Source: Eledone cirrhosa
Lineage: Eukaryota
Assembly (NCBI GenBank): GCA_964016885.1
Contig: OZ024743.1
Span: forward strand, 45,446,001-45,510,000
Direction: 5' to 3'
DNA length: 64,000 nucleotides
Shown: positions 5,015 through 63,892 of the stretch, one piece after another
Layout: every line of letters starts with the position of its first letter
How positions within the stretch are numbered: position 1 is the stretch's first letter
The notes under the pieces: model-generated
The model's database searches: none
What the model was told of the DNA's origin: nothing
The model's input: the letters and a program-made list of their open reading frames with translations, nothing else
Program-made: the position numbers and the translations under genes

Positions 5015-5288
<274 letters not shown>

Positions 5289-11676: not shown

Positions 11677-11725
11677 GATTCTACAGGACTAGAACTGTTT
11701 CATTCTTTAGAAATCATCAGGAATC
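11677..11725 (-). ncRNA. Canonical type I hammerhead motif within a ~147 bp perfect foldback (11650-11796)
   Basis: Minus strand: gattc CTGATGA t-ttc-taaa-gaa-t GAAA cag-ttctagtc-ctg TA gaatc. Confidence 0.8.
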
Positions 11726-11853
11726 CTGATGATTTCTAAAGAATGAAACAGTTCTAGTCCTGTAGAATCTCATCTATATTAAAACTTTTATACTCTGCAA
11801 TGTATTGAGTACCTTACTTACTGTGGTTACCTCCGATTCAACCCGGAATAACG

Positions 11854-20317: not shown

Positions 20318-20935
20318 TAAATATCTTTAAGTCATTTGGAAGCCTCGACAATGCAAATGGGTAAATCTCGGAGTAACAAGATCCGGTGGTGGAGAGAGAG
20401 ATGTAGGTGGGTGTACGTTGAGATGGGTGGGGTGTATAAGACGTGTAGAGGAATGAAGTAAAGAGTATAAAGGACAACATAAAAATAACAACACGACAGA
20501 GAGTTACCTTGGGAGAGATTCAATTGTCCCTATATATTTCGGATTCACATCCATCAACTGGGGTTTTTTTCCGGGGTGGGAGAAAGGTTGTCGGACAGAA
20601 AGGTGCGAAACGCATGCTCCGCTGTTTGTTGTTTTGAATATCTGAGGTATTCAGCAGAGCGCACACGCGGATGTGAATCCGAAATATATTGGGACAATCT
20701 CTCTCGTGTTGTTATTTTGATTTTTTCCTTTATACTCTTTACTTCATTCCTCTACACGTCTTATACACACCACGCATCTCAACGTACACCCACCTACATC
20801 TCTCTCTCCACCACCGGATCTTGTTACCCGGAGATTTATCCATTTGCATACGCGCACCCGCGCTCTGCTGAATACCTCAGATATTCAAAACAACAAACAG
20901 CAGAAAACGCGTTTCGCACCTTTCCGACTGACGCT
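20318..20935. mobile_element. Nested foldback of a further PLE-like terminus, with degenerate HHR (ggat-gtga-atcc GAAATATATA ggg)
   Basis: 20352-20552 is inverted at 20669-20849; 20597-20662 is inverted at 20860-20924. Confidence 0.55.
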
Positions 20936-20936
20936 T

Positions 20937-21580
20937 AAAACAGTATGACTCTAAAAACCGGTTTGTCTGTGTGTTTACATACAGAATAGCTGGACACTCA
21001 CAGTAAAGTGTCCAGTGAAAAACTCGGTACATCTACATATGTACACGTGTGTGTATTCATATGCATACTAGTATTTCAGTATACATATGTGGATGTACAT
21101 TTTTTAACTTAATTGTTTAAGCGTCAGTCATACAAAAGTGAGTTACAAACGAAACGAAATTTAATTTCGTTTCGTTATTTGTTTTTATCGTCTCCGCTGA
21201 ACCGGTACGTACTCACGCTCTATGCAAATTAGTCTGCCCACTACTAATTTTCATAGAAAAAGCATATAACGATATGTGCTTTTACGATTCTCTAGAAAGG
21301 CCGGAAGATAGGTAAATATTGCTGATGAGATGTAACAACATCGAAACTAGTCCAATATTCCTTGTCTGGCTTTCTGGAGAATAGAGGAAAGGTGTTTCCT
21401 CGAAAACCAGTATGACTCTAAAAACCGGTTTGTCTGTGTGTTTACATACAGAATAGCTGGACACTCACAGTAAAGTGTCCAGTGAAAAACTCGGTACATC
21501 TACATATGTACACGTGTGTGTATTCATGTGCATACTAGTATTTCAGTATACATATGTGGATGTACATTTTTTAACTTAAT

Positions 21581-21581
<1 letters not shown>
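20937..21581 (+). mobile_element. 1.4-mer of a ~467 bp non-coding HHR element (sister family of the array; retrozyme-like)
   Basis: 20941-21113 repeats at 21408-21581; HHR at 21315-21359. Confidence 0.8.
21315..21359 (+). ncRNA. Minimal type I hammerhead ribozyme with canonical core, GUC site
   Basis: aatattg CTGATGA gatgt-aaca-acatc GAAAC-TA-GTC caatatt; all stems Watson-Crick. Confidence 0.92.
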
Positions 21582-21627
<46 letters not shown>

Positions 21628-21689
21628 TTATATATGTTTATATATATGTAAATATATATATATATATATACATATATATATAGAGAGAG

Positions 21690-22416: not shown

Positions 22417-22690
22417 CTATCATCAGCATCGTATACCCTTCTGTCAGATAGTTGAACGTTCGAAAGTATATACTTTCCTTATGAAAATTAACGGCTGAGC
22501 AGCCTAAATTGCATATCGAGTGAGTTCAGTCGGCCAGGCGTACCGAAAACGATAAGTTGTAATATAATGAAAAGAAATTTAATTTCTCACTCTTAGTACG
22601 GCACTTACTTAAATGTAAGTATGTATGTATACGTACATACATATATGTATACAGACGTACAGTAGCATGCATATATATATATATATACAT
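22417..22690 (-). repeat. Inverted partial monomer heading the HHR array
   Basis: Reverse complement of ~22915-23190; breaks off just after CTGATGAtagc. Confidence 0.92.
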
Positions 22691-22694
22691 ACAG

Positions 22695-27278
<4,584 letters not shown>

Positions 27279-30637: not shown

Positions 30638-31525
30638 AAGAATTAGTATATCTACCAACATATATATACAGATGCATACCTATGCTAGCAAATATATAGG
30701 TTTTGTCTTAGTAACTTTGTGGTTCAATGTAAGGGGATGCAGAACAATTATATGAAAGACGGAAAATAATAAAATTATAAAAATTTACTTACTAAAATTT
30801 CACTCCAACTAATTAGTTTCTGAAAGGGAATAAACATGGTTTCCGATTGGAACAACATGGAGAAATATCCTTCCGTCATCAGGGAGATCTCTTCTCTTCT
30901 CAGCTAAGTTCTCAGGCAAAGCGTGGACACAGGGAACTTATACAAAAATAATTCAGTGGATGGAAAAAAGTAAGTGAGGATGAAATTCCAGGACATTGAA
31001 AAAATCACTGCCTACTTAGTCGGTGGCGAATTCAAAAGAATCAATCACGTGACATCGAGGTCAATCAGTAAGGAGTGGGGGTGTTAATAAGACAGTAGCC
31101 TGGCTATTACTATGAAGCATAGCAGTAGTTTTGGCAAATTTTTGCTCAACAAAATAATTTGGAGATAATTATAAAGAATTAGTATATCTACTTTTTCCAT
31201 CCACTGAATTATTTTTGTATATGTTCCCTGTGTCCACGCTTTGCCTGGGAACTTAGCTGAGAACAGATCTTCCTGATGACGAAAGGATATTTCTCCATGT
31301 TGTTCCAATCGGAAACCATGTTTATTCCCTTTCAGAAACTAATTAGTTGGAGTGAAATTTTAGTAAGTAAGTAAATTTTTATAATTTTCTTATTTTACGC
31401 CTTTCATATAATTGTACTGCATTCCCTTGCATTGAACCACAGAGTTACTAAGACAAAACCTATATATTTGCTAGCATAGGTATACATCTGTATATATATG
31501 TTGGTAGATATACTAATTCTTTTAT
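30638..31525. mobile_element. Foldback element with ~335 bp inverted arms (30638-30971 / 31190-31522)
   Basis: Arms are reverse complements; starts at a (TA)n junction; CTGATGA at 31273. Confidence 0.7.
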
Positions 31526-56798: not shown

Positions 56799-57495
56799 AT
56801 TTAAAGATATAGAACAAATAATGCCACACTCTAAATATTTTAAAAGCTATTCTATAATTCTAACTACACGTTTCGAGACTTCAAATTTCATCAGTGCATT
56901 ATTCGTTTTATATTTTTAAGGGAATCAATAGAGTTCAGTTCAAATGAATATAATTTAAGTCGCATATATGTAAATAAATAAGACAAGCTCGGGGACAAAA
57001 CCAATAAATTTACGAATATTATTTCCCTTTAAATATACAGCAAACACTGTTAGGAAGAAACTTGCATAGTCTAAACACGTATTTAAATTTTCAAAATAAT
57101 TTTTTGCTGTTTTTTTTAATACATAGAAACTAGATTAATCTTGTATTTATTGGTTGTTCAACATTTATTTGAGCAAAAGTTGAATTGAAAACAAATTACT
57201 CTTGTCTTTTGACGTGAACAAAAAGATTTTGATCTCAATTTGAACTAGGTTAATACATACTAAATGCTCGCTGAATTTTCCCATAAATGTTTTTTGGTTG
57301 GGGAAGATGGAACCATTAATTTCAGTATTAGAGTCTCCTGGAACCATTACTTTCAGTAGGAAAGTCTCCTGGAACGATTACTTTCAGTATGAGAGTCTCC
57401 TCCTCTACAGTCAGTGATATGTTGTATGCTTAAAATGGAAACACAAATATTTCCGGAATCTAATATGTAAAATTATATTTTTATATGTGTGTATA

Positions 57496-63404: not shown

Positions 63405-63892
63405 GTTGAGATAGATGGCAGTAGAGAATACTGGGAGAATCTGAAAATAAAAACCGCCACCAAATTAAAGCACACCCGGCCTGATATTGTTGTTTGGGAC
63501 CACACATTGAAAACGTGCTCTGTTATAAAGATCAGCTGCCCAGTTGATGTCAACGTTGTCAGAAAATACAAGAGAAGGGGGAAATATACGGATCATTGAT
63601 GAGGAGTTTGCAGATCCAGTATCCAAGATACACCTTCAGCTTCATACCCATCATTATTAGAGTTACAGGTTATATACCAACCCGCTTGGACCAATGTATA
63701 ACTGAACTTGGATTTGTGGACAAAGAGCGCAGCTCCCTAATTCATGGACTACAAATGGCCGCGACATCTGGCACCTTCAAAATTAGCAAAACATTCTTGC
63801 GATTCAAGGGAAGACAATTTCTTTTCTTTGCAGCCTTGCCACCAGGAATGTGGCCGGTCAAAAATGTACTCAACATTAAGAGAAAGAGGAGC
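63405..63892 (+). mobile_element. 3' end of a second R4/Dong-like family, between (CATA)n runs
   Basis: EYW...IKTATKLKHTRPDIVVWD..KTCSVI.ISCP.D.N; LMRSLQ..YP.Y.F.FIP.II...GY. Confidence 0.85.

Follow-up and report, generated by a model that had tools for sequence, protein, structure and literature searches.

A short tandem repeat carrying a hammerhead motif in the genome of Eledone cirrhosa is likely a non-LTR retrozyme that moves as a non-autonomous PLE: it would be copied in trans by the RT/GIY-YIG protein of a PLE, and its conserved predicted fold likely presents two priming sites to that protein. The repeat was studied in a window of 64,000 nucleotides (the whole stretch of DNA analysed; positions are counted from its first letter) and in the 3.0 Gb assembly that contains it. 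The fixed 3' ends, the occurrence of one end of each kind per inverted insertion, the TA targets, the array architecture and the copy number were all observed directly.

The family B copy and its hammerhead motif

The segment 20937-21581 (+ strand) is a 5'-truncated, apparently non-coding tandem repeat comprising 1.38 units of a family that we call B. Its part 20937-21114 is repeated as 21404-21581, giving a period of 467 bp in this copy; the value is 466 in most genomic copies, in keeping with the period of about 467 bp proposed in a previous sequence-only reading of this DNA. The helix strands quoted in that reading were all found in place.

A type I hammerhead ribozyme is predicted at 21310..21362 (+ strand). 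It has the CUGANGA...GAAA...NUH core with flanking helices I and II, and helix I is open. The core CTGATGA occupies 21322-21328, stem I, which contains a UA bulge, is formed by 21315-21321 and 21353-21359, and stem II by 21329-21333 and 21338-21342. GAAACTAGTC occupies 21343-21352, thus the cleavage triplet GUC ends at 21352, as the sequence-only reading had it, and cleavage is predicted after C21352. The triplet is GUC in this copy, whereas a large number of other B copies have GUU and family A mostly has GUA. At the gathering score Rfam yielded no match within the window; with an E-value threshold Hammerhead_HH9 matched 21304-21375 with 38.9 bits (E 1.4e-7; gathering score 52). The miRNA matches obtained with the E-value threshold were TA-rich hairpins far below the cut-off, and were rejected.

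The stem II strands of this copy (gatgt/acatc) and of the neighbouring array (agct/agct) had been presented as compensatory changes. The strands were correctly read, but the base of the array stem is a U.U (tAGCT/AGCTt), so the change at that position is from mismatch to pair. Helix III is a palindrome, ACUAGU in families A and B, which survives the change to ACAUGU in family C; family E has a longer, 3-bp helix instead. In silico, the monomeric helix III costs about 6 kcal/mol and the self-duplex gains 6.2. The ACUAGU palindrome is common to A and B (window positions 21344-21352 and 24828-24836), and mixed A-B double hammerheads are in silico as stable as the homodimers (-6.5 kcal/mol), while C is unable to pair with A or B. 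As 20937-21581 holds a single ribozyme, self-excision of a monomer by this copy is impossible. In Xenopus only one of nine retrozyme dimers was cleaved in vitro, according to the accessible part of a recent preprint (10.64898/2026.07.22.740005), so self-cleavage of the ribozyme predicted here cannot be assumed.

Families, insertion ends and array architecture

A core pattern of the A/B type (CTGATGA-N11-19-GAAACTAGT) had 23,698 matches genome-wide and the reversed control none; the C/E-type pattern had 2,660, also with an empty control. Families C and E surfaced through a looser core pattern, and pattern searches for further families of the ACTAG type returned only mutated A copies and chance matches. 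From 265 distinct ribozyme contexts in the sampled loci ten subfamilies were separated (A1-A4, B1-B3, C, E1 and E2). The family B unit had at least 183 matches, mostly with 99-100% identity, among the 40 of 557 candidates that were scored; the copies are dispersed over many contigs, in tandem and head-to-head. Family B is young. Its units, each with a single type I hammerhead and low in GC, follow one another head-to-tail without a spacer; the B array of locus L101 contains no frame of 250 aa or longer.

The array at 22427-27186 (+ strand) belongs to family A. It contains nine ribozyme cores, the first with CTAATGA, has a short inverted arm at about 22427-22690 and ends at site 1 (see below) before (TA)n. 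A and B are sister families, 63-65% identical (shuffles, 52-54%). In the array (23340-23480 and later units) the longest hairpin of A1 holds a (TA)n tract whose length varies from unit to unit (period about 490-580), and at 5017-5098 there is a short piece similar to family A's long TA-rich hairpin. Contigs of the A/B type from runs X4-X6 (low depth; two of them unit-length and self-closing) were dropped as cross-species or circular-RNA evidence because a tandem DNA repeat gives the identical picture; their variants are mostly also present in X1.

Other hammerhead-like sequences were noted. Family D is a separate 316-nt hammerhead repeat of different sequence, tandem or inverted and flanked by TA, with two ends about 40 nt apart (loci L174, L176, L184, L185, L187, L208, L209, L211 and L212). 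A head-to-head pair with a different hammerhead motif is found at 11683-11763 and also near the PLE loci L096, L099 and L102. Isolated hammerhead-like core matches occur at 56856-56894 (- strand) and at 30882 and 31273, the latter two forming an inverted pair.

All 25 mapped ends of family B fell at unit positions 8-14 (site 1) or 81-83 (site 2), and 24 of the 25 were followed by (TA)n. In family A 49 of 55 ends were at 0-11 or 60-70, places homologous to the B sites; another A set, confounded by cross-matching subfamilies, was set aside. Family E showed the same two end clusters. The elements thus have two fixed 3' ends, 56-75 nt apart, before (TA)n. Both ends lie at short, sequence-conserved TTA(T) motifs, with 2-4 nt of TA overlap between priming site and target, and many other TTAT motifs of the unit are not used as ends.

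Among the 41 B insertions with both boundaries covered, both ends could be typed in 22, and all 22 combined site 1 with site 2; in the remaining 19 a single end was typed. One apparent same-site case (L016) resulted from a 5' end misread by a loose motif, and disappeared on retyping. Eight of the ten A inverted pairs listed were mixed; one pair had two ends of the same site, and another was cut off. A further typing of family A, which left 119 of 157 blocks untyped and gave two mixed pairs and one same-site pair, was not relied on. Second arms may be only about 10 nt long (L029, L041, L042). The insertions are 5' truncated, contain partial tandems and head-to-head inversions, sit in microsatellite or AT-rich targets, and carry the tail, the segment between the two end sites, on one arm of the inverted insertions.

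The 3' end of the 20937-21581 copy is at site 1 and is followed by a (TA)n target microsatellite (21581..21682). On its other side a 14-nt inverted match to its own tail (20927..20939, - strand; reverse complement of about 21116-21129) is probably what is left of a second arm that had been primed at site 2. The copy would fit the one-of-each end rule if a later deletion took the rest of that arm. Just upstream, outside the retrozyme, lies the 3' end (pseudo-LTR) of an autonomous PLE of family X, which includes a rearranged inverted arm (20325..20932, - strand). This X arm is about 5.5% diverged from family X, the B copy not more than 1%, and family X has no similarity to the retrozyme unit; a later insertion of B and a subsequent deletion were therefore judged more probable than a joint X-B insertion.

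The interior of the arrays was also informative. Several inverted insertions (L298, L301, L165) have the same insertion-specific variants in their two arms, and some arrays alternate two unit variants. These patterns fit copying from one template, a multimer or a dimeric circle; later duplication or conversion would match them equally well. As the arrays are internally non-uniform, simple rolling-circle copying of one monomer circle fails to explain all of them. Sub-periods of two to four units were seen in the variants of L293, L297, L301, L302 and of the window array (23180-26880), and in L301 the alternation is present on both arms. At L217:990-3356 an inverted A arm abuts a B arm, the junction lacking TA, and the outer end of each arm is of the site-1 type; this arrangement is either a chimera of two RNAs or the product of two insertions with a deletion.

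The genome contains autonomous EN+ PLEs with RT plus GIY-YIG ORFs. In family X (L144-L152) these lie upstream in L146 and L150, and about 42 nt separate the two ends, which precede (TA)n; a canonical hammerhead was not seen in its 3' region (window 20325-20932; L144-L152). In another PLE family (L273-L278) there are several open frames of 796 aa, the 3' UTR is long and rich in TG/TA, and the two ends lie about 36 nt from each other. The two PLE families examined closely likewise have two ends before (TA)n, without the scaffold described below. By the cysteine motif before the endonuclease, three PLEs are called Neptune-like. Among 70 GIY-YIG/PLE loci (30 + 20 + 20) drawn from more than 10,000 candidates, no pseudo-LTR was homologous to the retrozyme clan. 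A-like matches near GIY-YIG ORFs (L085, L105, L275) were separate insertions or TA/TG low-complexity matches, and were discarded. The window also reads PDIVVWD...ISCP at about 63480-63550, which we take to be a motif typical of the restriction-like LINE endonuclease.

Predicted fold and selection on pairing

The predicted fold of the B unit (all coordinates on the + strand) starts with a small hairpin, CUUAA/UUAAG (21107..21121), which contains site 1; a second copy of this hairpin terminates the element at 21574-21581. End mapping places the tail, about 70-75 nt long, at 21115..21188, with site 2 falling after ...TTGTTTTTAT at 21188. Strand a of the long-range helix P1 (AGUCAUAC, 21126..21133) is predicted to pair with strand b (GUAUGACU, 21410..21417) or with 20943-20950. 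A predicted three-way junction (21138..21216), closed by the helix 21138-21143/21211-21216, encloses the tail hairpin (21148-21176), a single-stranded U-rich linker in which site 2 is located and a small CCG/CGG hairpin. It is followed by the UAUGCAAAU hairpin (21219..21257), whose 5' strand is invariant in all four families, and by the hairpin AAAAGCAUAUA/UAUGUGCUUUU (21258..21283), which is GAAAGU/ACUUUC in A and GAAAAUA/UAUUUUC in C and E. A long interrupted stem (21287..21382), in which 21287-21305 would pair with 21365-21382, continues ribozyme stem I outward. Beyond it are the hairpin GAGGAAA/UUUCCUC (21384..21401; AAGGUGAC/GUUGCCUU in A1, GGUGAC/GUCACC in C and AAUGA/UCAUU in E) and three hairpins within 21433..21565 (21433-21452, 21456-21483 and the long interrupted 21494-21565), which have positional counterparts in family A.

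The segment 21107-21418 had a folding z of -10.8 on the + strand and -5.3 on the - strand, and the whole unit is predicted to be about 67-70% paired, with z between -7 and -11. When A and B were folded independently as circles, they gave the identical order of helices: small hairpin, P1 strand, three-way junction with the first hairpin of the sequence-only reading, two hairpins, long stem ending in the ribozyme, hairpin, second P1 strand and three more hairpins. The proposal that the hairpins keep their order despite different sequence thus holds. The structure-tree distance between A and B was 169-246, compared with shuffled means of 433-454 (minimum 373; 30 shuffles each). Natural copies of C and E gave similar folds, those of C being less clean owing to the decay of the copies.

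Covariation was scored on sequence-only alignments of natural copies. In the ribozyme stems (nine sequences) 9 of 17 pairs and in the long-range P1 4 of 8 pairs were changed on both sides, counts that collapse in slid controls and rest on three to four families or lineages; P1 was paired in 98.7% of the cells of the natural copies. The covariation score of the ribozyme stems was 0.345, compared with 0.180 after shuffling and at most 0.087 after sliding, and 21 of 500 shuffles reached the observed number of pairs changed on both sides. Family E was left out of the ribozyme-stem count since MAFFT misaligns it in stem I; MAFFT also misaligns family B in two hairpins. The UAUGCAAAU hairpin behaved differently. 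The C-U mismatch in it had been taken as conserved between the two elements, which was an over-reading: it is present in A1 and B only, A2-A4 carry C-G, and none of 12 pairs was changed on both sides, so what this hairpin displays is sequence conservation and not covariation. In some family E loci (L226, L230, L239, L246) the module occurs in two or three tandem copies per unit, which suggests a modular protein-binding site.

A test that works without cross-family alignment compared the differences fixed between subfamilies with the mutations private to single copies. At confidently paired positions, pairing was kept by 22 of 35 fixed differences and by 93 of 373 private ones (odds ratio 5.1, p 1.3e-5), the five subfamily comparisons sharing references and thus not being independent. 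Fixed differences also avoid stems (43/1168 vs 95/1030), whereas private mutations are evenly distributed (1.03% vs 1.11%; p 8.5e-7). A strand test based on G.U versus A.C gave 10:3 for fixed and 79:68 for private changes (p 0.15), which is suggestive and not significant. Only 6 of the 373 private mutations were corrected on both sides. An imprint of A-to-I editing was rejected, the private changes showing no excess (A>G 100, T>C 90, G>A 89, C>T 86).

We conclude that pairing across the unit, in a structure which is itself predicted, is maintained in the transposing lineage. The independent folding, the P1 pair counts and the comparison of fixed with private changes thus bear out the suggestion of the sequence-only reading that selection acts on a multi-branched fold beyond the ribozyme.

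Mobilisation and comparison with known systems

In the explanation that we regard as likely, the arrays would be transcribed into multimers, in which two ribozymes may pair through the palindromic ACUAGU and cut after N-U-H, releasing unit-length RNAs. By analogy with the axolotl and mussel retrozymes, a host ligase may then circularise these. The 466-nt unit would fold into about 14 ordered helices; a signature of selection on them is found in the transposing lineage, the structure being a prediction. A PLE protein would nick both strands of a (TA)n tract, one of which would prime at site 2 and the other at site 1, each site adjoining a UUA(U) able to pair with the target. Joined head-to-head, the two cDNAs of variable length would yield tandem and inverted arrays with the tail on one arm only. 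The sequence-only reading, which named no element class, had proposed an RT-recognition domain. This idea gains support from the first hairpin, which sits between two fixed 3' ends matching the PLE tail, a segment tied in vitro to RT initiation; the circle-stabilising role that it offered as well is perhaps also played by the fold.

More tentatively, the unit may be a scaffold resembling telomerase RNA: one folded RNA of 420-470 nt, probably circular and bound by a PLE dimer, with two internal templating sites for a telomerase-related RT. Both target strands would prime on one molecule, one per site, the UUA(U) beside each site pairing with the nicked (TA)n target, and copying would proceed by strand displacement. 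The insertion-specific variants shared by both arms are what a single template leads one to expect. If this is true, twin priming at two structure-defined sites explains the PLE tail, the head-to-head inversions and the multimeric arms together.

Three other explanations were considered. An element of the same class could have a fold selected only for RNA stability, circularisation or ribozyme folding, with short motifs (UUA(U) and an A/U-rich target) setting the priming. The high pairing of the unit, shared with retrozyme circles generally according to the accessible text of PMC7229834, speaks for this, as do the short conserved motifs at both ends and the autonomous PLEs of this genome, which show two ends without the scaffold. 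We nevertheless think it unlikely, for it would not preserve the order of helices around both ends across four families, and it does not account for the placing of both sites in conserved structures (site 1 in the small hairpin, site 2 in the unpaired linker of the junction), nor for the many TTAT motifs that are unused. It is very improbable that the repeat is a DNA satellite with no RNA stage, in which template switching or palindrome correction makes the hairpins and the matched changes. The long tandem arrays with their sub-periods would suit a satellite, many of the local hairpins are near-perfect palindromes and the - strand folds well too; however, two-sided correction is rare among private mutations, the long-range P1 covaries, the ribozyme core is invariant on one strand, and the dispersed copies end at fixed 3' positions and are truncated to variable extents at the 5' side.

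That a LINE reverse transcriptase mobilises the element, or that the element replicates from RNA to RNA like a viroid and is captured by the genome now and then, is given equally little credence. Twin priming of LINEs also yields 5' truncation and inversion, which counts in favour of a LINE. Against this explanation, the copies have neither poly(A) nor a 3'-terminal LINE tail, the two internal ends, one per arm, are the PLE signature, and the opposite strand of the unit showed no ribozyme motif. Both LINEs and RNA-RNA replication are left open in the accessible part of PMC7229834.

The non-autonomous PLE that we favour touches several open questions: how a PLE protein recognises its RNA, how its two internal start sites are chosen, how inverted insertions are built, and which enzyme moves the retrozymes of animals. 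On the last of these the clan provides direct insertion-level evidence for PLE machinery. The unit offers a natural substrate of small size in which substitutions among the four families already mark the helices, so mutate-and-rescue tests and a structure of the PLE RT-RNA complex would be straightforward to design. It also bears on structured RNA with an internal template as used by the closest relatives of telomerase, and it is a recently active repeat of some size in this genome, where it has more than 26,000 ribozyme cores. We rate its interest as moderate to good, because RNA recognition by PLEs becomes directly testable.

The element class is already known, and a 2026 preprint already argues for derivation from PLEs (10.64898/2026.07.22.740005, accessible part). 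Metazoan non-LTR retrozymes have been described from coral, mussel and axolotl (Cervera and de la Pena 2020, PMC7229834), and by the genomic criteria in the accessible part of that paper the present element is, as judged from its sequence, probably a non-LTR retrozyme and would work like one. Like them, it forms tandem repeats, apparently protein-less and low in GC, with a single canonical type I hammerhead in each unit; it is present in tens of thousands of copies and has two sister families in one genome, a weak palindromic helix III and a highly paired predicted circle; one family even has the U.U at the base of helix II found in HHR_Amex2. The unit is longer, 421-470 nt as against about 170-400. 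The accessible text of PMC7229834 describes circular RNAs and cleavage by experiment, including dimer cleavage for the axolotl retrozymes, while the present element is known from its sequence; that text contains no fixed 3' ends, one-site-per-arm rule, (TA)n targeting or test of fold selection outside the ribozyme.

Vertebrate retrozymes have been proposed to be non-autonomous derivatives of PLEs (Li, Clavereau and Pollet 2026, 10.64898/2026.07.22.740005). In its accessible part this preprint reports tandem type I hammerhead repeats, co-occurrence with PLEs and proposed PLE machinery, as here. Its evidence is co-occurrence and pseudo-LTR similarity in Xenopus, whereas ours is an insertion signature and a predicted RNA fold; it samples no mollusc and leaves the mechanism open. 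In the literature searched, which mostly lay outside subscription papers, we found neither fixed priming sites nor a one-site-per-arm rule in retrozymes, nor a conserved covarying scaffold around a PLE tail, and, with Repbase and Dfam also outside the search, no description of such elements in cephalopods.

Autonomous EN+ PLEs are the other system to be compared, as far as the accessible parts of the sources go. In vitro, a PLE protein initiates reverse transcription at two internal positions, which delimit the genomic tail, and the purified protein, a predicted dimer, cuts and extends both strands of AT-rich DNA (Frangieh 2024, PMC11167929). PLE insertions are 5' truncated, form partial tandems and head-to-head inversions, and bear a tail of 30-40 nt at one end (Craig 2021, PMC8557442; Arkhipova 2013, PMC3846280). 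The present element differs from autonomous EN+ PLEs in apparently having no ORF and in its arrays of up to about 30 units. Its tail of 56-75 nt is longer than the published 30-40 nt, and its 2-4 nt of TA overlap departs from the report that the target is not homologous to the priming site (PMC11167929); both differences count against the PLE reading. With EN+ PLEs it shares truncated 5' ends, partial tandems, head-to-head inversion and the restriction of the tail to one end (PMC11167929, PMC8557442, PMC3846280), as well as two internal start sites downstream of the hammerhead, AT-rich or microsatellite targets and a palindromic helix III (PMC11167929; Cervera 2014, PMC4209133). Around these sites the present element places a covarying scaffold of about 14 predicted helices, whereas the accessible published accounts describe the PLE site just as an AC-rich stem loop.
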